A stretch of 63,887 bases of DNA, counting the filler, from Hausera hauseri (Eukaryota), in the NCBI GenBank assembly GCA_046269625.1. It is 11 parts of 11 records of this genome, joined end to end, with 100 filler letters (N's around TTAATTAATTAA, not from the genome) between each part and the next. Parts side by side here need not be neighbours in the genome. Positions count along the whole stretch, not along the records: positions 23,319 to 27,712 come from JBJURY010603888.1; 10 more parts are not named here. One strand, given 5' to 3'. The first letter of the stretch is position 1. The number at the start of each line of letters is the position of its first letter. This document shows, piece after piece, positions 510 through 46,528 of the stretch. Below the pieces are notes generated by a model. It was not told the DNA's origin. It searched no databases and saw only the letters and a list, made by a program, of their open reading frames with translations. The translations under genes were made by a program, and so were the position numbers.

Positions 510-964
510 TTATAGAGTTAAGGTCGCATTTCTGTAATCTGCTTCCTTTTCTTTAACCCCAAATTCTATAGTGAATTGGGGCATACGGTCCGTTAGAAGT
601 CCATAGTTAACGATGTAGTCATTATCTATGGCTAGTCGTCCGTAAACATCAGCTTTTGCTATTAAGTTTGTTTCCGGCTTAAATTCGTCCCATTCTTTTC
701 TTCGGAGGTCTGTAAATTTAGTAAACATTCCAACCGTTACGTCTAGCGTTCGCTCATATTTGTTGGTATTAATTTTTATACTTACAACATATGGTTGTTT
801 TTTTGTTCTTTCGTCATATATCTCTTCCAAGCATTTTGAGCAGTTTTCTTGCTGTTAAAAAGCAGAATACATCCTCTTTCCTCAATGGTAAAAGGAATGC
901 GGCACATTCTATTTGATTTAAGATTGTAATTGTTTATATTTTCGTAGTGCATTTCATATTGCAT
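510..964 (-). pseudogene. Frameshifted ORF of unknown function, possibly element-borne
   Basis: ORFs 782-964 and 510-830 overlap and join at 'NAW/EEIY'. Weak resemblance to 21775-22284 (DLRRKEWDEFK vs RLKDQKWDSFQ; FTIEFGV vs YELEFRV). Confidence 0.35.
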
Positions 965-8400: not shown

Positions 8401-9336
8401 GTCCGCTATAGTTCTACATGCAGCTCGGTGTACGCGTTACACATCTGAATCGTCCAATCCGATTTGCTCAGGCTCCCATATTCAAGCCGTACATAAATGG
8501 AAATTCGGCGAAACGAGCCTCAGCTTGTATAAAGTTCGAGAAAAACTACTACAAGCTGAAAAACAATTCTCTGGACGGAAAACAGTGGAGAATCTGAAAA
8601 AGCGGCTCAATATCCGCCTATGTAACTCGGAAAAGCGGCTGGTTACGTAAACCAGCAAGGCACAGTTTCGGCGGTCAATGCACATTGCCGATGGATTGGT
8701 TACGGTGCTGTTAAAGAGGGAAGACGTCGTACTGGACCGGCCAAGTTATATAGGACAAGTGGTATTGGATCTGAGCAAGTTGCGGATGTATGAGCTGCAG
8801 TATCGCGATTTGGCACGTTAACGATAAATGTTCGGCGGCTGCAATATTGACATAATTGCCGGTGACATTGATAGTTTTTCTGGGAACTGGAAAACGTCAA
8901 TCGCGAACAATTGATGCAGCAAATGATAGCAGACTGATTACTGGACACGTCCAATTACCCACAGAATCATCCATTGTACAGCAACGCCATAACAAACAAA
9001 ATCGGCTGCTTCAAGGATGAAAGTGAAGGTCGCGTTCAGTATTGGGAATGGATATTTCTACGGCCAAAATGTTATAGCCTTTTCACTGAAAGTGGACCAA
9101 AAATGCGCGCGAAAGGAGTTCAGTTGGTCCAGACGGAAATAAACCACGGTGACTATCTCCGTGTCTATGATGAAGGAGCACAATCAAAGGATGTTGTGTC
9201 TCAAACGATCATCCGATCATTTGAGCATTAGCTGTATACGGTGACCAGTACAAAAGTTGTTTTATCATGCAATGATAAGCGAAAATGGGTGAAGCGAATT
9301 AAGACTTGGACGTACGGAGATTGGCATTTGAGATAA
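5410..9336 (+). pseudogene. polB: Protein-primed family B DNA polymerase (pPolB) of a Polinton/Maverick/adintovirus-like element, with many stops and frameshifts
   Basis: Motifs in order: GSGW; NxDDExCF; YADIEA (ExoI); DHDHFTGRYFGAECNSCN (endonuclease VII-like insert); FHNFRGYD (ExoII); FLDSLQFL; KGIFPY; DVYLLTDVFE (ExoIII); YIDINNLYGWALSQPLPYG (motif A); YKLKNNS (motif B); DIDS (motif C); GCFKDE; LRPKCYS; AKGV. GC content is higher than in host-like contigs. Confidence 0.93.
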
Positions 9337-14854: not shown

Positions 14855-16236
14855 GGCACTGGTTCTCTTTTGGGCATTCTAATCCATTTGTCGTTGTCGA
14901 TCTTAAACATTGGCGACATATTGAAGGTGCAATTGTATAATGGAGTAGGCTTCACGTTAACATTTAATAATATTCTAGTTACTGGCATCGCAAATCTCGG
15001 TTCTGTATGGTAATCCACAGGTAATTCCATTGTACATTTTTCTGTTGGTCTGACTGATACTTCTATCTTCTTACATTCTATTCTTATCAAAACCTTGCCC
15101 ATCACTCTGCCAATAATTCCATCGCCGAAGGGCATTACGGGCGCTACCATGTCCGGATTTGTTATTACCAATGCCATTTAATGCGCATTATTTCATAATT
15201 CATCTTACATTCATTCATTATTATTTCTCTATATAAACCTCTAATTTCTTTCTTTACGCAATTGATTAGAAAATCGATTTTATTTTCAAAATATTGCGTC
15301 AACTTTATGTCTTGTCTATTTTGATTTTCGCACCGGATATTTCTTTTCTGGATAAGAAAATACACTTGTAATTGGTTTTTGATATTTCTTCGCCACATTC
15401 AATTGCCACTCCCGTGATTTTGAATCGCGCCATTTCTTCCGGATTTTCCTAATATATAATTGTAGATACTTCTGTCATCTTGACTTCCTTTGTTCCTTCT
15501 TTATATGTGGCTGTTTTTTTCCCTCCGTTTTCCCTACCGTTTTATAAAATTTTCCTTCTTTCAACAGCGTTAACTGACATTTACTTGCCGAGGTTTCCCA
15601 TGTCATTTTTAATTCTGCAGTATCATATTCGCCATTATCATACTCAAACTCACTCATAATCGTCATTAATTTTGTCTGTGAGTCGAATAACACTTCATAT
15701 TCTTTCAACTGGATCTGATAATTTTCGATGACTACCGTTCTAGGCGCACATCATAATCCACTCCTTTACAAGTACCTTCCATTGTTTTATCTATTCTTCC
15801 TGCCCTGAATATTCTGGTATATTTTATCCGATTTGGAACTGCCGGTATATGCGCGTTTTGTATAGTTATGATACCAATATTAAAAGCATCTTGACATTCC
15901 GCTCGCAATATAATGATTGGTTCGAACGGTGTCGTGGGCTTAATTACGGCTGAATTTCCAGAATAATAGGCACAATTTAACAGAAAAAAATGATCTTTTT
16001 ACGTAACATTCCCTGATTTTTGCTTTTATGAATTCGGATTCTTGATATACCCAGTATGTAAGACCACTTGCCGTTGTTAACTGTTCTGGGTCACCTTCTG
16101 GGCATTTCTCCAAATCCACTAGATAGTACTTCTGACCTTCACTAGGTTTAGAACGATCATAAGCTACTATACCTACAGCTTTCGGCATTAACAATGACAT
16201 TATTAGGAGAATTTGAATAATCTCCATCATTGACAT
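14855..16236 (-). pseudogene. env: Chuvirus-like (class III-type) envelope glycoprotein, N-terminal two thirds, frameshifted
   Basis: Hydrophobic signal peptide MEIIQILLIMSLLMPKAVG then IVAYD(R). Later motifs CxVKRS, C-x-L, KIDF, C..NYEI, GRVMGKVL..C, C..ELPV, PVTRIL, C...MSPMF, WI. Closely parallels 23319-24800. Confidence 0.85.
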
Positions 16237-16239
16237 ACC

Positions 16240-17890
16240 TGTTATGTCTGGTCTAGAGGTGTTTGGTTAAGTCGTGTTTGGCGTATCTATTAATCTTTCT
16301 CGTTCCCCTGACCTTACTATATTGGTCATCAGACTGGTCAGTCAACCACCTCTACACTGAGTCCAACTTCCTAACGTATCTTTTAAGATCTTCACGACTG
16401 TCCTTATATTCCGCTCAATTTCTTCTAGATTTTGAGTCTGATGATTAATTACTATTATTTTATATAGAACATATAATATAGCCATTCGAGCTTTCTCTCA
16501 TGTAATTCCAGTTACAAACATTTTTTTCTAAAATATTCAGCTCATGTAGTTCATTTATCCGTTCTTCATCTAAGTTCTCACAGAATTGTCTATTTATTCG
16601 TAGCATATTATTATGTAACGTTGTGAACGGTTTGTCTGGGATTATTGCCTGCATGTCAAATGAAGCAAATGACGTATACAGCCTAGCCAATAACGTTCTT
16701 AGTAATGGACCTATGTCCACCGATTCGGGAGTACCATTTGTTCCTGCTAGTAATAAACGTCTTACTGTTTCTTCATTCCTATTTTTTCTGTTACGAATGT
16801 CACTTATTTTTGTCCCTTTCGGCCTACCTCTTCTCTTGGCTTCCGTTTGAACCGTGACATTTAGTGCATCACCCACAGGGATTTCTTCTACTCCGTGTGG
16901 TTCCATTTCCCTTAGGATATTCTTTACTGTTGTCTGTGCTCTTGCTTCTGGATGTATTTCTGTTATCGTTATAGGATTGTAGTTCTCACTTCTACATCCA
17001 ATTCTCAATAATTTATCGTAATTATATAACATCCTTCCATAATAATTTAATCCATAAGGGCTCCCTTGATAAAAAGGTTTCAGCTCCTCAATCTTTTCTC
17101 TTAATATTTGTATATCATCTGCTTCGTTTATCCTAATGACTCTCATATCTTGGTTTTCTTTCTTTATTGTTATACGTATGACTTCATTTCTTCCTTTCTC
17201 GTCTTCGGCAGCTTTGGCCAACACTGTCCTGGCTATTTCTCTTACAGGACTCTTATCTTGGGCTAATAGTACCAACTGAGGTAAGATCTCATTCATCCTT
17301 TCCACCGTTACTTTATTGGTAAGTATCTTCAATATTGTGGTAGTCGTTTTATCCACATCGATTATATTATCAAGATCGACAGTCATTACTGAGTGAATGA
17401 TATCTTCCTCTTCGCCTAAATCTACGCCTGGGTTCTTTATTACCTGGTCTAATATAACGTCATCAAATATTGGCGTAGCTTAAGTTTCTTCTGGACTAAA
17501 TGAGGGTGTACTGAGGTTACTCTTCTTTCTTCCTCTTTTCTTTTCCTTTACTACCTCTTCCCTCTCTGTTGATGTTTCTCTTGATTCAACCTCTATGTCA
17601 ACTATTTTCTTATTGCCTTTCTTTCTTCTTTTATGAGATACTTGTTTCTCTTGTTGATTTTCTATTATATAAATGCTACTTTCTTTCAATCTTTGCTGCT
17701 ACCTTTTATACTCCTTTAGTTCTATTTCTAATTGCTTCTTCGTGCGTTGTGATAATGTATCGTTGCTATAATTGACACTTTCTTTCTTTTTGTCTTTTTT
17801 CTTAATTTCTTTTTCACTAACACTATCATTTATTTCGTATTCCTTATCGGAGGATTTATCTGACGTGGCCAGTGTATAATCTTTCGTTTG
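16240..17890 (-). pseudogene. Unknown extension 'X' between gag and env (K/E-rich linker plus a helical domain with an RRGRPKG motif)
   Basis: ORFs 17480-17689 and 16460-17386 are in the same frame as the gag zinc-knuckle ORF, separated only by single stop codons. Homologous to about 28830-30060. Confidence 0.7.
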
Positions 17891-18833
17891 TTATTTCTTC
17901 TTATTACTTGATTTCGAGGAATTTCCTATACGTGATCTACATGACTTGGCTATATGCCCATATTTATTACAATTAAAACATTTCAGTTTTCCTTCGGAAT
18001 CTATGTTAGGTAATGATCTTCCATGCTTCTTAGATTTCTTCTTATAACTTACCTTTTCCCCATCATTCCGTAAATTAAATCTTACTTTCTTTTCCACATT
18101 TGACTCAGCTTCCGTGGCTGACGTTTGTGAAGGGCTTCTGTTTCGTTCATATCGTTGATACCGTTGAGTACTATTGTTTCTTATTTTATCGTAACCATTG
18201 TTATTACTTTTAGACTTGTTCCACCTATACAGTTCCGCATTTAGTTCGGCTTTTCGCGCCTTTTTTATTGCTTCTTGGAACGTAGGTGGGTCTGCTTGTG
18301 AGATTATCATCCTTAATCATTCTTCTAATCCGTATTGAAATTGGGCCAACAAGGCGTTATTCCTTATCGTAACGTCCGGATATGCTCTTCATGCAAGTTT
18401 TCCAATGCGCATACAAAGTCCTGGATTGTTTCGTCTTTACGTTGGCTCCTGCTTCTGAAATCTCCAACTCTTCCCAGAGGGATCTATTAAAAACTTTTGA
18501 GGCAGTCTTTCTTTAATTACTTTCCAGTCCTTCTTGTCTTCATCCGGCATCTGGAAATAAATCATAAGAGCCGTCCCTTTGAGATGAAGGGGTAATCTTT
18601 CTACTCTTTGTTTGTCGTCCCAGACGAAACTTTTGGAATATACTTCATATTCCATCATGAAATCCTGTATATCTTCTTTGCCCGAAAATTTTTTCATCGG
18701 TAAGGTGAAATCAGCTTTCGACTGAATTACCTGCTCTACGTTATGGTTAGCCATTAGTTCGTCCTCACTTAGATTTCTTAAATACTCTAGTCCGAATGGT
18801 TCCTTTTCCTCTGGGTAATAAATTGTTCCTTTC
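17891..18833 (-). pseudogene. gag: Retrotransposon Gag (capsid region and CCHC zinc knuckle)
   Basis: KKFSGKEDIQDFMMEYE...WDDKQR...LPLHLKGTALMIY (retrotransposon gag); PPTFQEAIKKARKAE; KCFNCNKYGHIAKSC (CX2CX4HX4C). Confidence 0.92.
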
Positions 18834-19987
18834 NNNNNNNNNNNNNNNNNNNNNNNNNNNNNNNNNNNNNNNNNNNNTTAATTAATTAANNNNNNNNNNN
18901 NNNNNNNNNNNNNNNNNNNNNNNNNNNNNNNNNTCTCCTATATCCTTCCTTCTAGCATGCCCAACACTTTAATCCACTATTTGGTGGTCTAGTTGGCTTC
19001 ATGTTGTCGGCGCATCCGCGCCATATAGTACGCCTGCTTGTGTGTATCGCTTTACAAAGTCAATATTTACTATTTTCACCTATTAATCATGCATATGTGT
19101 ATCGTTTTGGCTTACCCACAACCCATCTATGAACCACATCGATTTTAGTCAGTAGGAGGAAAATGTAAGGAATCGGCATTTCCACCAATCAGGTTTCGTA
19201 ATACATTTAAACTAAACAAATTTGGGGAGTGTGACCAAATGGGTATTTCCCCAATAATTTTCCGTATGAAATGTGTTATATATTGGGGTGGCCCTTATTC
19301 AACTCCCGCTATATAACAATAGTTACTCTTGAAATTTCAAAATGTTATGCAGGTCGGTCTATCGTAATCGAATAGACAGAATGTACCTTAACGATTTTAA
19401 ATTGCTATGCAGGTAAATTGCTTGCGGTCCTGTGCCGATAATTATCAAGGCTCTCTCAGCTATATAAATTAAGTATTAGTTTAACCTTAATGACGTCAAA
19501 TCACCCTTAATGGGGTGATGGAAATTATATGCAGTTTAGAAGAAAATTTACCAAAAACACGAACACAATTTTCGATAATTAACTGAATCAACAACAAAAG
19601 AATAGTCAGTAAGTAGTTCTCGATCGAATCTGTCGTTACTGAATTTAATTCAGAAATTCGCAAATTCTCAACTTCTCTGGTCAACACTGTCCCTTTCATT
19701 CAGTCTTCTCTCTTTATATAGTTTAGGTCGCCATAATTTATTAATTTGACATTCTATTATTTTCTTTGTTCCATGCATTATTTAGAATTAATTTTCATGC
19801 TCAACTATATACAATTCATTTTTTTCTACGGCTATTTTATAATAATACATTTCTAACTCGTCTATTTTCATTAATAATATATGGCTTGATTCTGTAACGC
19901 AGCCTAACTACAGTAATATTATACATAATGTATTCCAATTCTAATTAATTATTCACAGCGTTGATGATTGCTTTTGTTTGCTACTAT

Positions 19988-20510
19988 TCATAACATTTCT
20001 CTTCCCTGAGCGGCATCCTCGGATGTGCCCATTGCGTCAGGAGAGGTGCCGTGGGAACGAGGCCGTCGTAACATTTCCATACGTCTTTTTAGACTGGGGC
20101 CGGAACTGGTTCTAGGCTGGTCTTCTCTGGGATTCATTTCCAGTTCATAACTATGGTAGGGTTTTATCCTCACTATTCTAGTATAGCTACTGTTTGAGTA
20201 ATACTTCAAGTCAGCAGCCTGAGCTCTGCATACTGCAAATGTGGTTTTTCCATTATCCAACGTCCATTTCTCTAATCAGTCTGCATTATTTGTGTCGACA
20301 ATCAGGGTTATTCAGTACTACATGTCCTTGTTTCAGGTTGGCCTCACACATGGGGCATTCATTTTCTTCTCTTTTCCAATTTTCATCGTCCAAGTCAACT
20401 CTTAGCATAATCTCAATCGGCTGTATTATCAATCCTTCATCATCTTGGTACAAATAAGCATATATTCTCTTCTTCGGATTTATGGAACTTTTCTTGGGAT
20501 CACATCCCAC
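19988..20510 (-). pseudogene. RING-finger domain at the end of a decayed accessory polyprotein
   Basis: ECPMCEANLKQGHVVLNNPDCRHK*C...NGKTTFAVCRAQ gives RING-type Cys/His spacing, partly eroded. Confidence 0.55.
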
Positions 20511-21383
20511 AGGTATTAGAGTCTAATCGCTGATAGTGTCTCGATCTAAATCGGGAACTTCACCAGTCGATTGGTATTTTTTATATTGCTTCATTAATAA
20601 CAACTTTATTGATTTATCCACGGGGACCAAAAGTTTCCCGTTCCGTCTGGACTGAAATATCGGGGCAACGTATTTTCCGATCATAGGATTTTCCCAGACA
20701 TGCGTGTTCTCATAAACTTGTCTGGCAGGCATTAATTTGACGAAAAACATCGCCTCTTTAATCTTTTGTTTGCTATAATATTCGGTTGCTATTAACATCC
20801 TGGGATAATCTGCCGTAGTGGCGTAGTGTATATCTTCCGTAGAGTTCTTTTTCCGTAATACGTTTATTTCTGTTATCTGCTCTTTCTGTTTGCTCAGTAT
20901 CGTCATGGACATCTAGGATCGGAACTGTAGGTTTGTTCTTGATGCTTCTGCTGGTTTTCTTGGATTATCTTGTTTTAGTTTTAAATTCTTGTCATCTTTT
21001 AATCTCTTTTCACCTTCTTTACTTTTTTCTTAAAGAAATAATCGAGGAAAGAGGTTTTCCTTTTTTGTCTTCCCAGTTTCGATCTCTGAAATCCTATCCT
21101 TTCCTTTCAGATGTCTCCGACGAATTTGGGGTATTTTAAACAGATTTTCGGTTGTTGTGACGCCATAACTTGTACTTGGTCTCTCATCCGACTGTATTTT
21201 GCCTTCTGTCTTCTCCGTTTTCAACCCTTTTATAGTTATTTGATAATTCCATTTTGGCGTGATTTCGACATTCCTGGGTGGAGAGTATGGGCGGAAATGT
21301 TTTCGGTATCGTGTGCTGAGTCCTTCGGGCTTGGGGAAATTCCGTAGATTTTGTCCGGGGTTGCTGGGAATCCATTCATGTTC

Positions 21384-21880
21384 TCACTTCAATCCATCAT
21401 TTATATCCCTTAGATATTGGGATCGTTGACTAGCGGACAACAGTCGGCTTATTTTTATATTTCCTCCAGTCATGGCCTCTACCATTAACTTGAATCGACC
21501 TTCCACGGTCGGTGGTAGATGACCCTTCTTCTCTTTGACCTTAATTCCCATTTGTCCCATAACAGTTGGGTGTATTTCTATCTTAGTCCAGCTGTGTGTG
21601 TTACCGGTATATCTAATTTTTTTATCATCCTCTGTCTGATACCCCACTAAGATGTATCCGTAGAGGCATTGTGCTACTTCCTGTTTCACTAACTTGGAAT
21701 CCTTCCCATGATTTAATTGTTCCCTTTTAATCCCGGTAACTTCTGCATAAGTTTCTAGTACTTTCTTTCTCGGGTTAATTATTTTCGAATAGACTTCGGT
21801 CCCGTTTTCTTCTCGGATGGATATTTCGATTGGGATATAATTTCCCTCCATAGTTTATTGCGACAATCCTGAGATTCCTA
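21384..21880 (-). pseudogene. DEDDh 3'-5' exonuclease-like domain (REX4/ISG20-like), degenerate
   Basis: RIVAIN.../EISIREENGTEVYSKIINPRKKVLETYAEVTGIKREQLNHGKDSKLVKQEVAQCLYGYILVGYQTEDD follows the REX4 pattern (VAxD..RVSIVxxxGxxVYDxxVxP....xSGI...L......VxxEVxxxLxGxILVGH...D). Catalytic residues appear altered. Confidence 0.7.
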
Positions 21881-22586
21881 TCATCGGTTACCAATCTAAA
21901 CGAATGTAGATGTGCGTCCTGTTCTTTTTCAGTGGGTCTTTGCCTAAACTCTAAGGGCGGAAATGAGATGGGTATTGTCTCCTCTTCAGTTATTTCGACC
22001 ATCATTTTTACAGGTAAGGCGGCTACACGAAATTCCAGCTCGTAGTTATGGAAATTCCTACTGTCAAATACAAACGTGCTAAACCGGCTTTGCTTTCCTT
22101 GGAAAGAATCCCATTTTTGATCTTTCAGCCGATAGTAGATCTCGTCGGCCAAGTGTACATATATCTTCTGTTCCTTGTCCGTTTGGTGCTGGGTGATCTG
22201 TTTCAAAGGGTATGTTCTGGCATCCTTATTCTCTCTCCAGGCATATAAATATATATCTCTGGCCTCTTCAGTCGTTCCTTTCAAACTGTTCGGTATCGTT
22301 AATTTTTCCGTATTGAACGAAGTTCTTTCTTTGTAATTCTGTATTGATTTGCCTATAGATGGCCTTTGAATTCGGGACCCGTACGGTCACATTGCTGCAA
22401 AAATCCGTCGATACTAAGTCGACTCGTAGTTCCCTCGGTGTCGATTCTAAGTCGGCTCGGGTTCATCTGGGTTTGATTACTTACCAATCTGAAAAAGAAA
22501 ATATAAAGGTTAATCTTAAAACAAAGGATGGTCTTAAACCCAAACCAATTCTTTGTGTGGTGACAGAATAACCTGATCTGTAATTG

Positions 22587-23218
22587 TCAGGTTATTTTAT
22601 CATAGGGGTCTATAGGGTCCTCCAATTCCCTTAGTTTCCATTCTGAATTTTTGTGACGCTTAGAATAACAGTTTTTGGCGACTAATCGAAAAATAGCGAT
22701 TGACATAATGAGAACAAACGTTGACAGTACTGCAATAGATATAATCGGTAGGGCAGTTAATCCTGGTGGTGCTCGAGTAGTTACAGGCGTTGTAGTTTCG
22801 TCGTCTATATTTTCAGGTGTATGCGACTCTGCGTGAGTTTCGTCTAGGGTATGCAATGTAATTGTTTGGGTTTGTTTATTCTTTGCATGCACTTGTATTA
22901 TCTATTCGGATTGCGGTTTTAGCAAGTTGCACTCTATTTGATAATTATTCTTAAATAATGTTACAATTTGATTATTATATATTGTCCGACAGCTTATGTG
23001 TATATCATAATTTTGTTTCCTTTCCACAAAGAACACGATTTTATACTGATGAGCCGAAAAACTGATAGGTATACTCTCCAATTCTGTTTTAGGTATGTCG
23101 TTTATAGTGACAGTTGGACTAATCTTTTTGGTCGTGGTTTCCACTAAAATTTTCCAAATTCTATTTTCTGGATAGTAAGTTCGTAATTGTATACTTGGTT
23201 GATTAGGCCGTACCTCGT
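22587..23218 (-). pseudogene. C-terminal part of a type I membrane protein (beta-rich ectodomain, Thr-rich stalk, TM, short tail)
   Basis: ETTTPVTTRAPP, then LPIISIAVLSTFVLIMSIAIF, then basic RLVAKN. ORFs 22902-23144 and 22587-22892 share a frame. Confidence 0.65.
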
Positions 23219-23318
23219 NNNNNNNNNNNNNNNNNNNNNNNNNNNNNNNNNNNNNNNNNNNNTTAATTAATTAANNNNNNNNNNNNNNNNNNNNNNNNNN
23301 NNNNNNNNNNNNNNNNNN

Positions 23319-25190
23319 TCGAATAACTATACAAAACGCGCAGATACCAGCAGTACGAAGCAAAATAAAATATTCTCGAATCTTTCGAGCCGGAAGAATA
23401 GATAAAACGATGGAACGTATCTGTAAAGGAGCGGATTATGACGTGGGAGGTACGATCGCGCCAAGAACAGTTGCCGTCGAAGATTATCAAGTTCAATTGA
23501 AAGAAGATGAAGGACTATTTGACTAGCAAACCAGGCTCATGACTAATTTGCAAATATTATAATGGGGAATGTGATATTGAAGAATCTAAAATGACTTGGG
23601 AAGTTGGTGCGAATCGGTGCAACCTTACAATACTAAAGGAAGGGAAATTCAATAAGACGGTAGGAAAAACAGCCGAATGAGAATTGATAACATATAAAGA
23701 AGGAATTAACGAAGTAAAGATGATAGAAGTAGCAACGGTAGTATATTCAGAAAAACCCGAAGAAATGATGCGATTTAAAATCGTGGGAACGAGTAATAAG
23801 TGTGATGAAGAGATGTTTAAAAACAATTATAAAGGCATATATCTCTCCACTGAAGAAGTAGCTCAAGCCAAAATAAAAATAGATAAGAAGGATATAAAGT
23901 TGACGCAATACTTTGATAATAAAATCGATTTTGTAATCAACTACGTCAGGAAAGAGATCAGAAGTCTATATAGGGAAATTATACTGAACGAATGCAAACT
24001 GAATTATGAAATAATACGGAATAAGATGGCGTTAGTAATAACCATTCCCGACATGGTAGATCCGGTGATGCAATTTGGCTATGGGGTGATTGGAAGAGTA
24101 ATTGGAGAAGTATTGATAATTATTGGGTGCAAAAAGGTAGAAGTAGCGATTAGATCTACGGAGGAATGTACTTTCCAAATACAGGTAGTTTACAATATGG
24201 AGCTTAGGTACGTGGTGCCGGTAACAAGAATATTACTAGACGCTAATACAAGACCAACCCAACTGGATAATTGTACTTTCAATATGTCACCGATGTATGA
24301 GTTGGACGATAAATGGATTAGAATGCCGAAAAGAGAACCGGTAACAAAACCAGAAACGTTAAGTCTAATTAATTTACAAAATCAGAAATTTGAACCACTT
24401 ACCGGCATATCACAAAGAGGAATTTATACACAGCAGAATTTAGAAGACTACAGACGAATGTTACTGTTTCCCCAGCAGAGACAACGAGTAATAACGGAGT
24501 TAACAAGAAGAGTGATGTGGAACGGAGAAGGTTCACCACAATGGGAAAATTTAATGGGAAGAGATTATTTGAAGAAAGTCACCAGAAATGTTATGAAAAA
24601 GATGTGGGGAAAATTCCTGTATTTTGGTCAGGCTGCTTCAGGATTTTTAGCAATATATTTCATCATTAGTGCCTTACGAACGATATTCACTGCACTTGAT
24701 AAAGCTTACGGAATACATGCAGCAGTAGGATGCTCATGGGAAATCCTTATAGTGGTAATATCAGCAGTTGCTAGTTGTTTCCTAGCAAACCATGACGCAA
24801 GATGGAAAAGGAAAATACTTAAAGAAAGAAAAAACGATATCGAGAAGAATTCGCCATATGGTACTTTAAATGGTAAAAATAACGATGACGAAAATGATTC
24901 AAATATCAAATTTAAAAGTGGTAGATATCTAACAGGATTTAGACGATTTTCATTAAAATCACGAAGACAGAAGTATAAACGAAAACTGGTTACTGATTTA
25001 CCTCAGTTAGATTCTGCAGACGAATATCACGGACAAATATATAACAAACAAATGTTAAGTCCATTAGCTCCTCAATATATGAAACATAGAGGAATGTATT
25101 CCACGTATCAGGTATTGCGCCTAAAACAGGATTACGAAGAAAATCCGGCATCATATAGTCGTGAACCTACGTGCAAAATGAGTGATAAGA
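23319..25190 (+). CDS. env: Chuvirus-like fusion glycoprotein (env) with C-terminal hydrophobic segments and tail, continuing in frame into the protease
   Basis: 548-aa ORF 23684-25330: CxLTILKEG (just upstream), KIDFV, C..NYEI, GRVIGEVL..GC, C...VPVTRIL, C..NMSPMY, GIYTQQNLEDYRRMLLFP, WGKFLYFGQAASGFLAIYFI, YGIHAAVGCSWEIL. This pattern is typical of chuvirus-like G proteins. Confidence 0.88.
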
Positions 25191-27712
25191 ATGGGCCCCA
25201 GTCGGCGTTGAGACCAGAAATAGGTATCGAAGTAGATAAACATACCTTAACGGCCCTAATGCATACGGGATCAACCATCACAATAATGGGGAAAAACCAA
25301 TTACCCAAAGAATTAGTCAGTAAATTATGAAAGCCTGAAGAAACGTTGATTAACGTCGGAGCATTTGGTATGGCGGAAGAGATAAAGATGGTTTTGGATG
25401 CAAAAATCAAAATCTGTGGCCAGACAATAAACCATACCATAAGAGTGGCCAAAAATTTAACAAATGAAATACTGATTGGATGTGATGTATTATATCAATT
25501 GGATAACGTGTATATAGATGTTAAAACTGGCCAACTTAGAGCGTTTGAAAATCGATATGAAGAAGCAGTTACATTAACTAAAGATGTTTTAATTCCGCCA
25601 CGTTTAGAGATAGTAGTGCCCGGTAAAATAGAATACAGACCATTGACGAGCTATGTGCACTTTAAGCCGTTTCCACAAATAATGGAGAAACATAACATCC
25701 TTGTTGCACCACACATAGACAGGATAAGGGACGGAAAAATCCATTTGAAAATTTGTAACACGGGAGCAAAGGAGAAGTGGCTGAAAAAGAATGAGACTTG
25801 GGAAAGCAATAGATGTCGAAGAAGTACCAAAAGGAAACGATTAATTCGGTAATCTCAGAAGTAGATGAGATCGAGAAACTAATGACGAAGAAATTGAAAG
25901 GAAAACTAAATAAAGATAAAGAGAAGAAAACTACCCACATTAGTTGGGAAGAAAAATTACAAAATTGTAATATATCTAATGAAGAAAGAAGAATGCTCAT
26001 CCAGCTGTTGGAGAAAAACAACAACCGATTCGCTCAAAATGACTATGATTATGAATGATGAACGTAATACAACATGTGATCAAGTTGAAGGAGGGTCAAA
26101 ACAAATCTATAAAGAAGCGGCCATACAGACTGGCATACGACAAAAAGAAAGAAGCTCATTAAAATTTAAATGAAATGAGGGAAAACCAAATAATACGACC
26201 CACATGCTCCCCATGGACGGCTCCAATAGTGATGGTTAAAAAGAAAGATAGAACTATGAGATTCTGCATAGACTATAGAGTGTTAAATGAAATAACGGAA
26301 ACAGACACGTACCCGTTACCAAGTATTGACGAAATATTAGATAAACTGCATGGCTCAACCATATTAAAAACAATTGACCTACAAAAGGATATTGACAAGT
26401 AAAAGTGAAGGAGGAAGATAAGCCGAAAACGGCCTTTTCTATAGGCGAAGGGTTATGGGACTTCAATAGAATGCCATTTGGATTAAAGAATGGACCCAAA
26501 CTTTTCAAAGAGGAACGTAATTATTACTTCTAGATGCACCACATGCTATAGTGTATATCGATGACGTAATCACAGCATCATCGGATTTCCAACAACACTT
26601 AAAGGACTTACAAGACATCTTTTATAGTTGTGTAGTAATGGGTTTAAAAATAAACCCGAAGAAATGCTCATTTACTCAAACCAAAGTTGACTTTCTCGGA
26701 CATCGACTGGATAGGTACAATGTAAAACTTCAGGACAGACTATTAAATAAAATTAAAGATTTTCCAAAACCCACCACCGTTAAAAAATTATGCCGATTTT
26801 TAGGACTAGCAAATTACTATCGAAAATTGATAACAAATTTTAGTAAACTAGCCAAACCGCTATATGAATTACTACGTGATGATTTAGAAAAGGTAATATG
26901 GACAAGTGATTGCCAAAAGGCTTTCGAGGACCTGAAAGAAAAATTATTGACCGCCCCTATTCTGATATACCCTGATATGACTAAACCGTTCATATTGGCA
27001 ACGGATGCAAGTGACTATGGAGTAGAAGCGGTGTTATCACAAAAGTGCGAAGATGGTAAAGAATATCCAGTTGCATATGTGTCGAGAAAATTAAACAACT
27101 GTCAAAAGAAGTATGCCGTTATTGAAAAAGAATTGCTAGCGGTAATATTAGCACTGGAAGTATTCTCACCGAATATTAGTGAGAATAAACCGTTAGTAAT
27201 TTATACAGACCATCGACCACTGCAATGGCTGAAGAAACACGAAAACCCCAATAGTATACTACTACGATGGGCTTTAAAACTTCAACCTTATGCGTTAGAT
27301 TTTCAATATAAGCCTGACACACGAAATGCGAATGCGGATTATTTATCAAGAATGCCACAGAAAGAGATAGAAAAGAAATAAGTAATTGCAGCGGTATGGA
27401 GTATGGATAAATCGGTAGAGAAGATAAAAGAGAATTAACGAGAGGATGAGGAAATAAAGCCATCAGAAATTATATACAAAATAAAATTATACCAAAGGAT
27501 AGAGAATTGGCTCGTCATTTAACCAGATTTAGCTACGCATACGAAGAGAAAGATGGATTGCTGTATTATATTCATCAAAATGGGCATGCACTAGTAATTC
27601 CAAAGAAGAATATTACGGTATTACTGACCAAATATCATGACGCATTACTAGGTGGGCATCAATCAGTATGAAAATCAATAAACAAATTGAAAAGAAAATA
27701 CTTCTGGTCTAC
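25190..27712 (+). pseudogene. pol: Ty3/Gypsy pol: aspartic protease, spacer domain, reverse transcriptase, RNase H, integrase zinc-binding start
   Basis: TALMHTGSTIT...ILIGCDVL (protease, D to H); SPWTAPIVMVKKKD..RFCIDYR.LN..DTYPLP; MPFGLKN; VYIDDVI; TDASDYG..AVL; KELLAV; TDHRPL; RWAL; YHD.LLGGH...KYFW. RT-RH-IN order. Confidence 0.96.
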
Positions 27713-27812: not shown

Positions 27813-28827
27813 TGGCATATATAAGAGCCAATTTTGTTCTCATGATCTTGGTATCTAATTTACAGTCATGTATTATCATTTTATGATATAATTCAGTTAT
27901 TCCGACTTGCTCTTTGTAATAGAAATAATCGTCTCTGTTTTTCAGATAATCCTCAATTCGGACATCTTGCGTTTCTAGTTTGTATGTCTTTGCATTTATT
28001 TTCGTTTCTGAGACGAAAAATGCCTCATAGTTAGTAGCGAACATCTGATTAGTATAGTGGGTGTAGGATGTTCTGATATATCCTCGCGAGTCCTCGACTT
28101 GGTATTAGATTTATCCACGTATCGCTTTCCGGTAGTTGCGTTAAACTTCAGTTCCTTAATTTCAATAAAATTACAACTTCTTCCAAATGGAGGTTTCCAT
28201 ATTATAACAGAACTTCTAAAAGCACAGGTTCCATATTGTAAATGACATTTCTGATTCTCAGTGTATAACTTAGTGATACTATGAAACATTACTTTCTGTG
28301 ATCGCATCTTTTATTCGTAGAAATCCACGACTATCACATTCGCTTGTAGTCCTTTCCCAGTGTCATATTTTGCTCCGTAACAATGTCCGCTATGCATATC
28401 TAACCTTCCGACCACTACCTTGTATGTCCTAATTATCTTTCCTGGTTGCATTTCTAATTGCATATTATCCCATTGTATCCTTCTAGTCTCTTTAACTTGC
28501 TTGCAATGTTGGCGTTCTAAATTCATTGGAATTAGAGGAGTTGTTAATTTGATTATTGAGGAATGTCCGTGTCCTAGTCCACAATGAAAAATGCTACAAG
28601 ATCGTCTCAGCATACATTTTATTCCATCTAACGATATTAGTTCTTGTTGTTGATACAGGAAATAATTTTTCTCTCGTGTTTCCAACTTGTGCAATCTGAC
28701 ATCTTCGCACACTTTCAGATCCATTAGGAAATAACGTATCGCAGTCGTAGACGGTAACAGCGCTTATGTGCTTTATTAACATCATCAAGGTGAGTAGGCT
28801 GATTAGCCAATTCGATTTATTTTTCAT
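27813..28827 (-). pseudogene. env: Second, divergent chuvirus-like envelope glycoprotein (N-terminal part)
   Basis: Signal peptide MKNKSNWLISLLTLMMLIKHISA then VTVYDC; LYQQQ; KCMLRRSCSIFHCGLGHGHSSII; GHCYG; CHLQYGTC...IIW; HDCKLDTKIMRTKLAL. Confidence 0.85.
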
Positions 28828-31796
28828 TAGCCAACATCCGCCGTTGTCAAATTACATAACATATCGTCGATTTTGTTACCCATCCGTCTGTCTTCTTCCT
28901 TGTCAAATAGTCTTGCCCAATTTACTTCGCAGGGCAATCTTCTCGCCGCTTTTCGTGCTAAGCTTACAGCTCTATTGATTCCATTTTCTAGATTGGGGTT
29001 ATTTTAATAGCTAAATATAGTAATACTTTCCTCAATTCCTCGTTGGTGTTTTTTACCATGATCTTTTCAATTACCCATTCATCGGTTAAGTTACTTTTCG
29101 ATAGTTTAAAACGTCAACTTCTCATCATTCTGGCTGCCTCGAATATTATCTTTTCTTTATCATCTAACATATCACCTTGAAAGCTTGAATAATTTACAAT
29201 TCGTATTAAATTCGTCATTAACTCATTTAATTTTTCATTGTACTGAAAGCATAAATCGACATCTGCCTCAATTCTCTAATCAATTCTCGATTGTAGTCCA
29301 TTTCTTCTCGCGTTTTCTTACGTCTACCAACTGGATGTTTCGACCTTGGGCCCTTAGTGGTAATTTCACTTAGTGGTACTAAATTTATATCGTATTGTTC
29401 CTTTTCCTCGTCCGTTTGTAAATACTCAAAATACATTGCAGCATCTCAGATTACACTTAATTTGTCCTACGCATTGCTGTGTCCTGGCCTTACGCGTGGT
29501 TTCTTCTTTCGTCTGTTTGTTAGTATTTATTGCTACTACCCGATTTGTTTTGTCGGGGATAAGCCCTACATCTATTAGTTGTTCTAGGTCGTCGAGTATT
29601 CTACCTCAAAGTAAAATCTGTAATTTAGCTCATTTGTTTCGCAATTGTTTAATAACCATTCTCTTACGTCTTTTACAAAGGAATATGTAGTTAACTCGCA
29701 TTCTTTTTCGTCCATTTACTCGGACAATATCATTACTTTCATAAATACCTCAGGTTTACCCCTCAAGATTTTAGCCTATTTCCTTATCAAGAGTTTCGGC
29801 ACCGTGCTATAAATTGTATTCTCACTAGATAATTTAGTTAATGTCGGAATAAGTTGTCTTAACTTACTTTCAGTAATGCTTACGTTAATTAGTTTGATTA
29901 AATCTGTTTCAGTTAGCGCTAAATCCAGTAGCATATTTACATTAAGTCTCCTGTTTTGCGGACATGTTTCTGTCTCATTTAGCTGTACTGGAGTCCCGGT
30001 TTTTTGGCAATTATCGCATCTAAGTATGCATCCCATTCCGGCTCGTTTCCAACATCTGGAAGTCTATAGTCCACTAAGGCTGTATTTGTTCTTTGCACAT
30101 TTTCTCGGATTTCTTTCAATCTGGGCTGTATTTCCTTCATCTGCATAGTTCCGAAACCTATTCCGTTTCCACAGGCATACTGAATTATTTTCAGTAATTC
30201 GCCTAATTCATTAGAATTAATGAGTCCCTTTTGGTGATAATCTGTTAGTTCAATAATTACATCTCTTTGCCATCTTTGTACGAATTCGCGCTTGTTTTTG
30301 ATCTCTGATTCGATAAAAACATACTTATTCCGGTAGATTTTGAGCTCTTTTGCTAATTCGTCTAACCTTTGTTTGGTTTTAATGCAGGTTTCTTTAACCT
30401 GTCTTATTTTAGGCATCAATTGCCTCATCTTTTCATCGTTAATTTCTACCATTTCTACTAATAGGAATGCTAGTTCGTGCGTTTCATTTATGACTTGTGA
30501 GTCGGGATCTATGGCATCCAGCAATTTCCTTACGAACTTAGATTCCTGAAAACTAAGACGCTGATCATGTCTTATCTTCGTCAACTCTGTATGGAAATTC
30601 TCATCTGATCCGGCCATCCATTCTTGTGGTTTATGAAGAAATTTTATTGCGTCCGTTAAAACGACTCGATGTTCCGGACAAATGTCTAGGGTTTCAGTAT
30701 CTTAAACAGAGATGTCATCGATAGGTTTATCTGTAAAATGTTGAACTCCTTCTAGTAGGACATTCCTTAACCTTGGATGGAAATTGCAAGTCATATTTCG
30801 CTTTTATGTAAAATTCGTCTCTTCGACCATTTTATAGATGTCTTCCAGTATAGTTGCTTCTTGTTTCTTCTTCATAAATTTAGTCGTCGTAATCTTCGAA
30901 TTGAATTCGAATGTCTATTTCCGCATTTATTGTGTCTAAATTACATCCGCTTTCTTTTAATTGTTTCTTTATAGAATGCTTACTCTCTAAAAATTCTTTC
31001 TTCCGGTTTTCTACTAATTTACTTAGTCGCGTTACTAATTCGGACAATTCCGACAACTGATTGGCGATTATTGGCTTTGCCATTATAGCCTTGTCTAGCA
31101 TTTTATATTCCTCATCTGGGCCTTTAATAAAGTTCATAACCCGGCTGACGTACTTGAACTCCTCTTTGTACTCGTCAAATTCTACGAGGCAAGCTTTTAC
31201 TACGTATTGTGTCTCCTCGTGGTTCGGTAACATAATTCGGTTTCTCATGCTGTAAATCTGTGCTCGCTTTTCATTTTCCGTTTTTATTCGGTTCTCCAAA
31301 TTCGTATATCGTTTAGGTACGGTAAAAGAAACTTTTATCATCGCCATCAGGGAAGGAATATCCACTGGTTCTACACCCAGTATTTCCAAATCGATATTAC
31401 TTCGATTAATCATTGCACAACGAATTTCATTCATCATGCGCTCTAAATTGCGGACCACTCTCTTCAGTTTTGTGTTTGTTTCCAAGGTAGACAGTAGCGT
31501 CTGAGTTTTAGTGACTTTCACGTCAACAGTATCTTCGTTTTTACTCCATCCTTCTAAAAATTCTACTCCTCTTTTAATCCACAACTCTAATTCGTGGTTT
31601 CATTTTATCAACGTATCTCGTGGCATATCTTTCGGTTGTCTTATTTCAATTGCTTCATCGAGTTTTCCTTCACTCCACAATTTTAAACTCTTGTATAATT
31701 TTTCCGAAAATTGCTGTTTCTTGCCAGATATATCTGTTTGTTTACTAATCTGCTTGAGCCTTTTCAAATTGTGTCTGAGTATTTCTGGATTGTGAC
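28826..31796 (-). pseudogene. Long decayed ORF upstream of env: coiled-coil-like region plus a homolog of domain X
   Basis: K/E-rich helical ORFs 30880-31584 and 29979-30617. PEWDAYLDAIIAKKPG...LIKLINVSITESKLRQLIPTL parallels PIFDDVILDQVIKNPG...ILKILTNKVTVERMNEILPQL of contig 14855-18833. Confidence 0.65.
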
Positions 31797-33214: not shown

Positions 33215-35500
33215 TTATCTGGCATCTATCATGTTCTCAATGTATTGGACCGAGTTAATATAAATGTCTGTTCCAAAAGAGTCAGATTGCTGCAATGGAT
33301 CAGCGTAATCTTGGAGTGCAGCGTATTCCAGTTCTGAAAGAGGAATGTCAAGTTCAGGAACATTGACACATGTATTATGTCCATTCGTGTAGCCGCTGTT
33401 CTCCCATTGAAATTCCGAAAGGGGTATTACCTAAATGACATTGATGCAGGGAAACAAAAACGCATAATAAATGTTGGAGAACATAATTACAATTGTGTGC
33501 TTTTTTTAATGTAGCACTTCTTTGAAAAAAGAAATGTTCGAGGTAACAGAGCAATTACAAATTTAAGGTGATAAACATAATTTTACAAGCAAAAAAAGAA
33601 GGCTTAATGAGAGGTACAGAACATATCCTTCATAGTCTGTTATCACAAAATAACATTGACTTTCTTGTAATTAACATGTTAATAGATTAAAAGTCAACAG
33701 TATGAATGCAGCATTTACCTCATGAACTGGATCTCCAACAGGGTTAAGGGCTTGGCCCACCTGCCACAATTGATTTGGGGTGAGGTTCTGCTCAGTTCTG
33801 ATGGGGTGGTTGTTCCATGCATCAATAAAGACATCCAGGCTGGCCTGTATGCGTGGCAGGAACACATAATGGCAGCAAAAGATGTGCAGGACATTGCTGA
33901 TGTCAAGGAAGTGGCCATCCTCAAGAGAGTGCAGGATATTGTAATACACTCCTGTGACACTCATGAACAAATCTCGCCAGAGACGCTCAATCCTGTATTT
34001 CAAAAGACAAAAAAAGAAATTCTATTTCTTTTTTTGGAATTATTAAAAATTCCAAAAAATTATTATTACATTGCATTATAATTATTATTATTAAAAACTT
34101 GTCACTGAATGTTGTCTTTATTGGTGAGAATATGAATACTGTAACAGTAGCTTATGGTATATGTTTTAATGGAAAATTATATAAATATAAGCTTCCAAAA
34201 TTATGAACTCACCGCTGATTGTGCACGCTTTTGCCTGCAATGAAGCTGTTGGTATCAGTTCCACGAACTGAGAACATCAATTCAGCTATCTTCACATTCT
34301 CCCCTCCGTGATCTCCTCTTACTCTGAGAGTTAAGACATGATTATACAAATTTGATTAATTGAATACAATAAATGTTTGTTGTCTTTTACACATGTGTAA
34401 AGGACATGGCATTGTTCTTAAAACATCTAGCAACTTCATGTTATATAAAGCGTCATACGTACATTATAAACCACTGTTGGCGTGTAACATAAAAGAAGAA
34501 CAATGTTGCATTGAATTCCTCATGCAAGGTAAATGTCAGATATGGCTAGCATTTGTCATTGATTAGTGTCAAATTCTTGTGTTACAATAATCTGTTGCAG
34601 AGTATTACAAATTAAAATGATTCAAACAAGTAAAGGAGACATAGGTGTTTATTTGTAAGTTTAATCTGTGATTCTGCCATACTGGACCATGTTTGGGGCA
34701 AAAGAGGTAGGAGTTCATTATGCAATCTGGAATTTTCCCGTTTACGCCCTTGTCTGCCTATGTTGCTGTGTTCTTTTGCAAGACACTCCACCTCCCTTGA
34801 AAACTGTTGGTGGGCAGAGTACCTGTTGGCGTCATAAGGCAGCCTTACAGATATCTGACTGTCCCAGGACAGCTGTAGCTGTATTGTAGCTCACCATCTT
34901 CAATGTGAATATGTGTGTGATGAGGAATGAGAGATGTAATTGTAAAGCATCTTTTAGTGTTCATAAAAGTGGAAGCAAATACCCCATTGCAGTTTATTCA
35001 TGTTACACACAGTAATTTTTAAAATAGCCCATGCCACGTCAATAAATGGGAACGTCCCAAAAGTATGTAATTCAATCTTGTTTATTTCCACTGGTAAGTA
35101 ACAATATATCTTCATAGTGTTTAAAATAACAAGAAGGTACTATTGCAGTTGTGGGAAAGTGTGTGCCACCTTCCTGTTGATCTTTAGCTCCCTCAATAAT
35201 AAGGACTGTCATTAAGAGAACAAATAGTATTGACATGGGATGTATTAAACTAACGCATGGGTTTGTTGTTCCAAAACACAATGTTTTGAAAAATCATAAA
35301 AAATGGAAATCAGTAAGGGGTTAAAGGACTTTCTCACACTGCAGTTTACCCATGACATTTGGGATTTGTACTGTAATCAAAACAGAACATACAATGACAT
35401 ATCAGTACCTCAGAGGAAACCCATGGTCATGAACAGCTTCATTGAAGAACTTCAGGTGGGTGTCAGATCTGTTGTTGTCTGCTACTTTAAGATACATAAT
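33215..35500 (-). CDS. Spliced integrase-core (IS3/IS481-like DDE) transposase gene, last four exons: 35409-35500, 34213-34323, 33719-33992, 33215-33430
   Basis: All junctions are GT-AG and phase-consistent, giving an uninterrupted [31 protein letters not shown]|VRGDHGGEN...GKSVHNQR|IERLWRDLF...[15 protein letters not shown]...|...FGTDIY..*. The 5' exons were not found. Confidence 0.85.
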
Positions 35501-40069: not shown

Positions 40070-42305
40070 ATGTTTCCTGTAAGAAACATTGTGATCTCCT
40101 GGTTTCGCCAAGGATCAAGTCAATAATATATTACTTATAAACGTTCAGGATAAGGTATAAAACAGTTCTTTTGTTTTGAGCAGCACAAATTAACCAGGCA
40201 TTTTCTACAGGTTAAATATACCACAGATTGGCAGTCTTTGCAACGATTTTTTTGTCTTCATATGTGGGAAAGTGATCCATTTTGTTATACCTGCCTTAAT
40301 TAATGATTAATAAAGGTGGTTTTTTAGTAGTTGGTGGGAGCAGCGATGGTTTGTTTGCATGAATGAGAGCTTCAGCTATATTGAGAATAAATTTTCTAAG
40401 GATTAACAGTTTTTCAACTGGTGACACAATTGAAAGATCCCTTTTGTACAACAACCATGAGTTCACTACGCATGTATGAACAAAATGGTAAAATAAGTAC
40501 ATATACCACCGTTTACTGATGAGATTATATTTGCATTTTGATACAAGTTAATTGAGCATATCCACTCCTCCCATAAATTTATTATATTCGTTAATACCAT
40601 GCAACATCCTTACTTCAATTTTTTGCTTTATTTTCCTGTCAGATCGTTCCTTTATCTGTATCGCTTCAATACTAACATTGGTTGTTACCAGACGAACAGC
40701 TCCGTCATTAAACCATTTCACAGTTTTCACACCAATTGTTAGTATAAACTGAATACGATCCTCTACCTTCTTTTTACATTTCACGATCTGACTTCAAAAT
40801 CATTTCTTTTGGCAGGCAATTTGTTCTGATAGTTCACAAGTTGATATGTTGGTTTTCTTTCAGTTTCAACACCAAAGGAATGCTGCTAAACAAATTGTCA
40901 GCATATATCTTGTATGGTTTATAATTCAGGCTTTTGCAAAGATGAAAAACAGTTGAGCCTATAGCTCCCAGACTCTCCAGAGTTTCTACTTCCACGCTTT
41001 TTCTTTGATAGATCTCAAAATCTCTAAGTAATCCGGAGTCTGGACACCTAGCCAATACTTTGAATCCCTGTTTGTGTGATTTGTTTGGCAAATACTGTCT
41101 GATTTGTGAAATTTTTCCTTTAAAAGAAATGACTATATCATCAATACTAACATGTTCAGTAGAGGATAGTGCATTGAATTTCACCTTCTAAACCTTTAAA
41201 AGAGGTCTTATTTTCCCAAGCTTGTCTTGTTTATCTTCTGTTTTCTTAAGTTTTCCACAAAGTGCAAATTTCTTGCTGTTTTGGAACCGATTTCGGCTGA
41301 ATAAAAATGAAAATTGTTTTATTTCAGTACTAATTTCCTAATATGAACGAATATTTTCTTGCTGGATCAACCATGTCATTAGACAGCACCCTATGTATCT
41401 TTCAAATTTGTCACAATCAAGCTGCAATTGTTGACCACTTTCAAAACAGTGTCTATTGCTCCTATGACAAATAAAATATATCATCCCTTTACAAGCATTT
41501 GATAAAAATAATAAAAATGAGCATTACTGTCCTCTAGAAAACACTCATCCATTTCAAATTCTCTATCAGAAACTGGTTGTAATGATTAATCAACCATCTC
41601 CCATTCATTTCCAAAACTAGAATCAAGTACACTAACCTCGTTCATTTCGCTGTCACTGACAGAGGATTGTTGACTTTCAATTATTTCGTCATCTTCAGAT
41701 TCTGAACAGCTTTCATTAGAATTAATATTCAAAAGGATATCGTTTGCCGCAAATTTAGCTTGCCTAGTTGGCATATAATAAATGGAGACTTAACCTAGCA
41801 ATAACTTAAACAACTAAAACAAAATTCAACCTTGTAACATATGATCTCTACTTTGCATAACGTTCACACTGATGAAGAGAAATTTATAATATTTCAATGC
41901 AGAGCCTAATGCTTCCTACAGGAAACAGTCATTTTTGAACTTCAGTTATTTACTATTGCAAATGTTTGTTAATGAATGATATGATGTACAAATATCATAT
42001 ATATCAGCCAATTATATTTCAATGTCAACTGCAAACAATAACTTGTTTTATGGTTACAAATTCATTAAAATATTAGGATAACCTGATAAATAAATAGCTA
42101 TAAGTTCACAATTGTTGAAGGCATACTTAAACCAAACACTATTCATTTTTTATCAAAGCAATGTTTTCAGGTAATCATCTTGTATTAGAAGAATAATAAA
42201 TGGCAAGAATCTGGTTATCCTAAAGATTGCAGGTCACCAGAACAACTATTTTAAAATGTCTTCACTTATGATTCCTGTTGGAAACATTGGGCAATGCGGG
42301 CTTAA
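40070..42305 (-). mobile_element. piggyBac-like DNA transposon with a decayed transposase (about 40140-41774)
   Basis: SIDDIVISFKGK..IRQYLPNK; ADNLFSSIPL; YNKFMGGVD; C-terminal Cys-rich tail. One end reads GGGC-TTAA at 42298-42305; repeated TGTTTCC..GGAAACA-like subterminal motifs near 40070, 41908 and 42270. Confidence 0.88.
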
Positions 42306-44900: not shown

Positions 44901-45142
44901 ATTTCTATCATTTCGTTTCGATCACGTTTTATAAGAAGATTTACAATATCCAAATTTGGTTCATTTCGCTGCAGATTGGACAAATTTATAAATAAGTTGA
45001 ATTTTGAATCCACAATCAATGGTGAAATGTGTCAGANNNNNNNNNNNNNNNNNNNNNNNNNNNNNNNNNNNNNNNNNNNNTTAATTAATTAANNNNNNNN
45101 NNNNNNNNNNNNNNNNNNNNNNNNNNNNNNNNNNNNAAGTGA

Positions 45143-46337: not shown

Positions 46338-46528
46338 ACAAAAAACACATTTACACAATTGCATTAACACACGCAAACACTACACATATCAACAATGCCA
46401 TCTCCACTTTTCTTTGCACATCTGACTTTTACATCACACACAACAACTCTACAATACCTATCGCTGGAACCCTACAATCTTCTTTAACTGATATCTACCT
46501 CCATATACACTTTGGCATCCGTGTTGGC

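Follow-up and report, generated by a model that had tools for sequence, protein, structure and literature searches.

A decayed Ty3/gypsy copy of Hausera hauseri with Env in frame with the protease, and related polyproteins in which Pol may lie on the cytosolic tail of Env

Positions 23319-27712 of the window (63,887 nucleotides, 11 contigs of Hausera hauseri joined with N-spacers between them) are one whole contig of 4,394 bases, JBJURY010603888.1. We interpret this contig as a Ty3/gypsy retroelement copy, now decayed, in which the envelope glycoprotein (Env) runs in frame into the protease of Pol, and whose intact relatives encode everything from Gag to integrase in one frame. In the arrangement that we consider the most probable, with moderate confidence, Pol is carried on the cytosolic tail of Env and is freed by its own protease. 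An earlier, sequence-only reading had taken the contig for the element. The contig contains only part of it: Gag, the long terminal repeats (LTRs), the front of env and most of the integrase are missing. As the contig ends lie inside env and the integrase, the LTRs and Gag would be located off the contig.

The central open reading frame (ORF), 23681-25330, has 549 residues when counted from stop to stop. As proposed earlier for an ORF of 548 residues, it holds glycoprotein ectodomain, membrane segments, tail and protease motif. Residues 24-397 matched PF24664 (Monjiviricetes_fusion, a family of fusion glycoproteins from chuviruses and their negative-strand relatives) with E 6.4e-64. The match covered profile positions 254-628 of 653, thus the ectodomain present in the ORF (23681-24613; plus strand, as all features of this contig) is only the C-terminal half. 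Env reads on upstream of 23681, where it is broken by a stop at 23678 and by a frame change near 23525-23550. In the following, P-numbers (P0002 etc.) denote relative proteins, L002 a metagenome locus and L001 a viral contig. One upstream ectodomain piece (23323-23523), in another frame and cut by the contig start at 23319, was aligned by tblastn to P0005 510-561, P0008 257-322 and P0152 675-692. A second piece (23549-23680), in the frame of the long ORF, ends in the stop 23678-23680, which is crossed by the tblastn stretch to P0005 567-1013.

An AlphaFold model of the ORF, made from an alignment of 141 sequences, had a mean confidence score (pLDDT) of 73, with values mostly above 80 in the ectodomain half. 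In Foldseek searches with the model the best match in BFVD was chuvirus G (E 7e-19) and the best match in PDB was gB of herpes simplex virus 1 (HSV-1; E 6e-4), all PDB rows listed being herpes gB. VIA-align also ranked HSV gB first, as a weak match (Z 6.7, root-mean-square deviation 8.1, 238 aligned). A sequence search of solved structures with Env gave no match. The structure searches agree with the earlier assignment, and as modelled the glycoprotein belongs to the class III chuvirus/gB class.

The ectodomain is followed by two hydrophobic stretches at residues ~312-340 and ~342-373. Segment A (24614-24700) is predicted to be a membrane-spanning helix. Its Kyte-Doolittle (KD) hydropathy is 1.83, and 1.79-2.54 in all 16 relatives that have the anchor motif. 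Segment B (24704-24799) is likely a membrane-adjacent helix and not a second crossing; it scores 2.11 here and reaches at least 1.6 in only two of the 16. The basic tail that joins Env to the protease (24800-25207) is predicted to be disordered (pLDDT below 50 for residues 391-510). Its 138 codons are free of stops in this frame, while the two alternative frames contain 9 and 16, and none of 20,000 base shuffles of the tail was open. The next domain (25208-25558) is a retroviral-type aspartic protease, recognized by an RVP match of E 0.0017, which is below the family cut-off. The protease motif, ALMHTGS, is present at 25253 as noted before, without the catalytic aspartate. The domain is interrupted by the TGA at 25328-25330, and single-frame tblastn alignments to P0005 and P0008 indicated that the frame is maintained: one stretch (P0005 1084-1264 against 25214-25759) spans the stop codon. 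Thus the sequence-only reading was borne out in describing a stop-free tail of roughly 140 codons after two membrane segments, and a protease continuing in the same frame after one TGA. The element's stretch was matched by 13,809 and 1,723 contigs of two public sequencing runs, which points to many related copies. Among 12 listed of the 19 insertion/deletion sites in these run contigs, none fell between the membrane region and TGA 25328.

A full HMMER scan of 1.84 billion proteins with Env yielded 765 matches, and the best among the 150 listed were long polyproteins. Word-index protein searches with Env returned no match, near or longer, where the full scan did find relatives. As judged by Pfam, Env is followed by a protease in the same chain in P0002, P0004, P0005, P0006, P0007, P0008, P0010, P0011 and P0043, and further in P0152, P0154, P0156, P0009 (weak) and L002. 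These 14 sequences represent 11 clusters at 90% identity (the pairs being P0004/P0152, P0006/P0154 and P0011/P0156), that is 11 independent relatives. The chain extends from Env through reverse transcriptase (RT) in P0005, P0008, P0010, P0043, P0152, P0154 and L002. In an Env tree of 146 regions (10 of 156 matches were left out for short coverage) the 15 protease-fused sequences all fell into one clade of 19 members, the window included, with a support of 0.98. No protease motif followed Env in any of the 127 sequences outside that clade. An RT phylogeny had been suggested as a check, and in the RT-RNase H tree (129 regions; WINotherRT and P0028 were left out for short coverage) the window Pol grouped with six of the eight Env-linked Pols in a nine-member clade (support 0.96). 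The Env tree and the RT tree point to the same relatives, which weighs against nested elements. With the same junction found in 11 independent relatives and the two trees in agreement, the Env-tail-protease frame is not explained by chance or nesting, and judged from these alignments Env-protease fusion is a family trait.

At least one locus, L002, was recovered in the metagenome scan, and no LTR pair was found in its 9,022 bases. GTDB genomes contained no relative of P0005, and among viral contigs only the chuvirus-like genome L001 turned up. This genome (L001:1-10815) encodes a stand-alone glycoprotein, a 489-residue ORF and a 2,161-residue ORF, and served as a stand-alone comparison.

The layout proposed earlier, Env and Pol only, had missed Gag. 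In five of the 11 independent relatives (P0005 with a CCHC motif, P0007, P0009, P0011/P0156 and L002) Gag belongs to the same chain, and the order Gag-spacer-Env-Pol is read in one ORF. L002 has a single ORF of 2,693 codons in which capsid and CCHC knuckle are followed by Env and Pol and which extends past the integrase. In the window, a decayed sister element (14855-18833, minus strand) consists of capsid-like Gag, CCHC knuckle, spacer, internal signal and env. It was recognized by zf-CCHC (E 1.3e-5), by pieces of PF24664 and by similarity of its gag to L002 (E 1e-14), and it is 71% identical in nucleotide sequence to the env of 23319-27712 over 1,031 bases. The Gag-Env spacer contains a GRP-type basic motif, presumably resembling an AT-hook, in the sister contig (16463-17479, minus strand) and in P0006, P0007, P0008 and P0154.

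The membrane topology of these chains was deduced from hydropathy. In stand-alone relatives of 600-760 residues, the motif [AGS][YF][DN]C is located near residue 23, directly after a hydrophobic N-terminal stretch, in 75 of 86. Among clade members with the motif, 14 of 14 have an internal stretch of comparable hydropathy in front of it, with KD12 values of 1.9-3.5 versus a median of 2.4 in stand-alone viral glycoproteins. This suggests that the internal stretch acts as an internal signal peptide. At the other end of the ectodomain, segment A is more hydrophobic than segment B in 16 of 16 relatives. A single crossing is therefore the better reading of the membrane region, and the tail would be cytosolic. 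The hydropathy of the relatives thus fits the earlier proposal that Pol forms the cytoplasmic tail of a fusogen.

A second membrane protein appears to follow the integrase. At least two hydrophobic segments after the integrase were found in six of six full-length Env-fused proteins versus one of 55 other Pols, and this lone exception, P0159, sits in the RT clade of the window. The unit begins with a hydrophobic stretch (putative signal), continues with 250-400 residues that contain cysteines and sequons (putative ectodomain) and closes with another hydrophobic stretch (putative membrane segment). It is located at P0005 2259-2575, P0008 2486-2750, P0152 2592-2915, P0154 4363-4740, P0043 2780-3200, P0159 1447-1880 and ORF residues 2421-2693 of L002. 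The ectodomains of these units did not align with each other (best E 0.05) and had no Pfam match. P0152 and P0154 have T-x-V C-termini, which we take to be a PDZ-binding pattern. With Pol on the cytosolic side, a second signal at this place would be understandable.

These features can be combined into a scheme in which the polyprotein would thread the membrane of the endoplasmic reticulum (ER) in-out-in-out. The first internal signal would be cut by signal peptidase, which would separate Gag from Env-Pol and leave Gag and the spacer anchored on the cytosolic face of the membrane. Segment A would stop transfer, placing Env in the lumen and the tail with Pol in the cytosol. The second signal, past the integrase, would re-enter the ER, so that Pol would become a loop held at both ends. 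Gag, Env and Pol would be present at 1:1:1, with Gag and Pol brought together on one membrane. Trimers of Env would gather several proteases, whose cleavage would free RT and integrase inside the budding particle, and the second glycoprotein may serve attachment. The proposed threading and cleavage resemble flavivirus polyprotein processing, and foamy viruses package Pol without a Gag-Pol fusion. Recruitment of the enzymes via Env rather than Gag may reasonably be inferred from the layout. A more tentative picture, possible rather than likely, is that these elements are flavivirus-like enveloped retroviruses with four ER crossings, a Pol loop clamped between the anchor of the fusogen and a second signal, that of a fast-evolving attachment glycoprotein, packaging and protease activation by Env trimers in place of Gag-Pol, and a herpesvirus-like two-protein entry.

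Several observations weigh against Pol being made on the tail of Env in one chain with Gag. The topology comes from Kyte-Doolittle hydropathy only, and in the copy of the window segment B exceeds segment A (2.11 versus 1.83), which taken alone would permit a hairpin with the tail in the lumen. Six of the 11 independent relatives start in the spacer or in Env, which may be due to truncation, to decay or, in some, to a real break between Gag and Env. In the sister contig the env signal is out of frame with gag and the spacer, which have a frame in common, though this copy is heavily broken. Four of the 19 clade members (P0003, P0012, P0013 and P0019) stop before or soon after the membrane region and have no protease; P0012, whose sequence runs 37 residues beyond the match, may truly be an exception. 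The Env-fused Pols of L002 and P0043 lie outside the RT clade of the window. Finally, TGA 25328 was absent from the 40 listed of 1,279 difference sites, and this stop may be shared among host copies.

The strongest competing explanation accepts the continuous ORF and assumes that working Pol reaches the cores as Gag-Pol, either from a spliced RNA that skips env or because the internal signal is ignored and the protease cuts a cytosolic Gag-Env-Pol. Env-tethered Pol would then be a by-product. In its favour, LTR elements as a rule package Pol as Gag-Pol, skipping of internal signals can occur, and in five of 11 independent relatives Gag shares the ORF. However, the internal signals equal those of stand-alone viral glycoproteins in hydropathy, the second signal past the integrase agrees with regular in-out-in-out threading of the complete chain, and the env-skipping joints detected were single low-depth contigs, which do not establish splicing. 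We regard this explanation as rather unlikely.

Still less probable is that Env is kept for a role outside particles, such as cell-cell fusion or a membrane assembly platform, while the element moves within cells and the fusion places reverse transcription at the membrane. The parts of PMC6431247 and PMC13524379 that were available give no particle evidence for such elements, and the relatives bear many host-like modules, for example the ankyrin repeats of P0154 and P0159. Yet the relatives, at only 26-40% identity, keep the whole fusogen domain, in which three cysteines (C150, C163 and C198) did not vary in 10 of 10, and the second surface-type protein is kept as well, which fits an entry machine without proving one. 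That the frame is an accident of this copy (nested or mis-assembled env and pol elements, or a lost stop) could be suspected from a decayed 4.4-kb contig of a repeat family with so many matching run contigs, no single one of which, among those listed, spans 23319-27712, but it is very improbable and largely refuted already by the shared junction, the concordant trees, the open tail and a depth that was continuous in both runs (30 of 30 bins; this summed read/contig depth is not a copy number, and one run may be the source of the window).

The copy in the window is itself a ruin. Between protease and RT there is a conserved domain (25559-25789), found with a profile of eight relatives from which the window had been left out (E 2.5e-11). 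It is weakly dUTPase-like: hhalign to two dUTPase domains gave a score of 24 versus 8-13 in 20 shuffles, with a probability of only 12.7%, and the fold model of the protease/dUTPase region had a pLDDT of 41. RT (26061-26712) was identified by RVT_1 and tblastn pieces; it is distributed over three frames with stops and has its YIDD motif at 26554-26565. RNase H (26974-27291) matched PF17917 with E 5.3e-35. Of the integrase H2C2 zinc finger the first half is present (27597-27712; PF17921, E 0.008, profile positions 1-22 of 59, and tblastn); it contains a stop at 27669 and is cut by the contig end. Thus RT, RNase H and the finger, of which only the first half remains, were all found after the protease as described earlier, and RT is not in the protease frame. 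The order protease-RT-RNase H-integrase is that of Ty3/gypsy (Metaviridae). Among 12 solved matches of the RT the best was Ty3 RT (E 2e-37), retroviral enzymes giving 1e-25 or weaker, and by this comparison Pol is Ty3-like.

The copy is more than one TGA away from intact. In addition to the stop in env and the lost aspartate, alignment of Pol with intact relatives revealed that the frame changes at least five times from ~25790 to ~27380 and that additional stops lie near 26160, 26395, 26518, 27408, 27447 and 27669 (places approximate). Judged from its frames, the copy 23319-27712 is decayed and itself unable to make the products. In run X1, 1,326 of 1,346 of the run-contig depth differed from this copy at the env stop 23678 and 485 of 502 at the protease motif site. 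Because nearly all of the depth differs at both sites, both breaks look private to this copy.

Env-bearing LTR elements (retroviruses, errantiviruses) normally carry env as a separate ORF 3' of pol, and the design had been called apparently undescribed. In this the earlier reading was mistaken, as judged from the papers cited here. In-frame env between gag and pol is in print for the planarian element Burro/GYPSM1 (Arkhipova & Yushenova 2019, PMC6431247), whose env has matches to mononegavirus fusion glycoproteins and whose internal region measures up to 25 kb (more than 30 kb with LTRs). The present element shares with Burro in-frame Env and Pol in one polyprotein (Env-protease on the contig, the whole chain in relatives), an Env like mononegavirus fusion glycoproteins, and decayed copies with stops and frameshifts (PMC6431247). 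The slot between protease and RT, which holds a dUTPase-like domain in Burro, is occupied here by the conserved domain whose likeness to dUTPase is weak. Ankyrin repeats and the size of 4,800 residues, other Burro traits, were seen in relative P0154. The ubiquitin-like and BCL2-like domains that Burro has between Gag and Env are weakly supported in the relatives and the sister: P0003 had a Bcl-2 match of E 0.00096, below the cut-off, and among 1,132 window pieces the sister piece 16345-16497 scored best against a three-sequence profile, with a weak E of 0.009. PDB profile searches for Bcl-2 and ubiquitin folds found neither. As the Burro-specific modules are only weakly supported, no membership in Burro is claimed, and the element is filed as a GAG-ENV-POL gB-type Ty3/gypsy element that would work like Burro, likened to it by description and not by direct sequence comparison. 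Section 7 of PMC6431247 discusses neither membrane topology nor the recruitment of Pol, nor an additional membrane protein past the integrase.

GAG-ENV-POL errantiviruses of the HSV/gB type have been reported from Nematoda, Bryozoa and Platyhelminthes (Chary & Hayashi 2026, PMC13524379). Supplement 1 of that paper has 10 bryozoan, 9 flatworm and 36 nematode rows (nematodes by occurrence count), 55 elements, and gives coordinates, not frames. The paper describes three ORFs and allows ENV-POL gaps of up to 2,000 nt; the available text has no wording for an in-frame, single-ORF, fused or polyprotein layout. Traits in common are a Ty3/gypsy Pol, a gB-type Env upstream of Pol, distribution over several lineages rather than one clade, and an ectodomain that is sometimes located between two transmembrane segments. 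Gag upstream of Env, another trait of those elements, was seen off the contig 23319-27712, in the sister contig and the five Gag-containing relatives. The nematode elements called NERV reportedly have a continuous gag-env-pro-pol ORF and are said to be restricted to nematodes. NERV (Sacco et al. 2022, J Gen Virol 103:1739), which is cited in PMC13524379 for the nematode elements, shares, by its title, ENV before POL in a metavirus and a glycoprotein captured from an RNA virus.

The Anakin elements (Dezordi et al. 2020, PMC7642597) carry the same glycoprotein family on an LTR element, but they have a BEL/Pao Pol with env after the integrase, which is the layout of P0117 (DUF5641, then env), whereas here Pol is Ty3-like and env is upstream. 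The BEL/Pao Anakin type was ruled out on these two grounds. Troyka was ruled out as it encodes no envelope (PMC12440569, part of the text). The literature search, which left most subscription journals uncovered, retrieved no paper in which Pol is recruited by way of Env or in which the second membrane protein is described, and nothing under env-pol or gag-env-pol fusion or polyprotein, which does not imply absence from print.

With gene order and in-frame Env already known, the copy 23319-27712 is mainly one more host record, and what could matter is the mechanism implied by the layout, i.e. topology and Pol packaging. If Pol is packaged on the tail of Env, the enzymes could be loaded without a Gag-Pol fusion and without a frameshift, and the particle would contain Gag, Env and Pol in fixed proportions of 1:1:1. 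The conserved membrane protein after the integrase offers a handle on topology and is a candidate attachment protein. A decayed copy is a poor object for topology tests, for which the intact natural relatives L002 and P0005 are better suited.

Some further features of the relatives were recorded. Two to six protease motifs follow Env, some past the integrase, in P0002, P0004, P0006, P0007, P0008, P0011, P0152 and P0154; the contig 23319-27712 has one. The same glycoprotein family occurs in other fusions: directly before an RNase H domain in P0028, after DUF5641 in P0117 and, in P0141, behind a gypsy-type integrase within a single chain. P0005, a eukaryotic-type polyprotein, is filed at NCBI under a metagenome-assembled genome of Flavobacteriaceae, and likely stems from a contaminating contig.

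Other contigs of the window also contained env-related sequence. A third, more distant decayed env with pieces of PF24664 and its own signal stretch (28594-28851) was found at 27813-31796 (minus strand), preceded by two coiled-coil-like ORFs (29979-30701 and 30880-31599). Region 138-1684 (minus strand) is a decayed match, 38-55% identical, to the pre-Env spacer of P0013, which assigns a fourth window contig to the same element family. In 18934-23218 (minus strand) an ectodomain-like piece with a membrane segment at 22587-23216 possibly represents a post-integrase protein; piece 22905-23270 matched the profile of post-integrase ectodomains only weakly (E 0.17). It is followed by further ORFs, one of them weakly exonuclease-like (RNase_T, E 0.035). 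The remaining stretches (6821-8408, 33674-34021, 40837-41187, 45137-49409, 58248-59177 and 61940-63261) contained a remnant resembling DNA polymerase B, an rva_4 integrase (E 1e-28), a remnant resembling piggyBac, a gypsy element that lacks env, a piece of a TAF2-like host gene and two RING-finger ORFs, all labels except rva_4 being assigned by eye.

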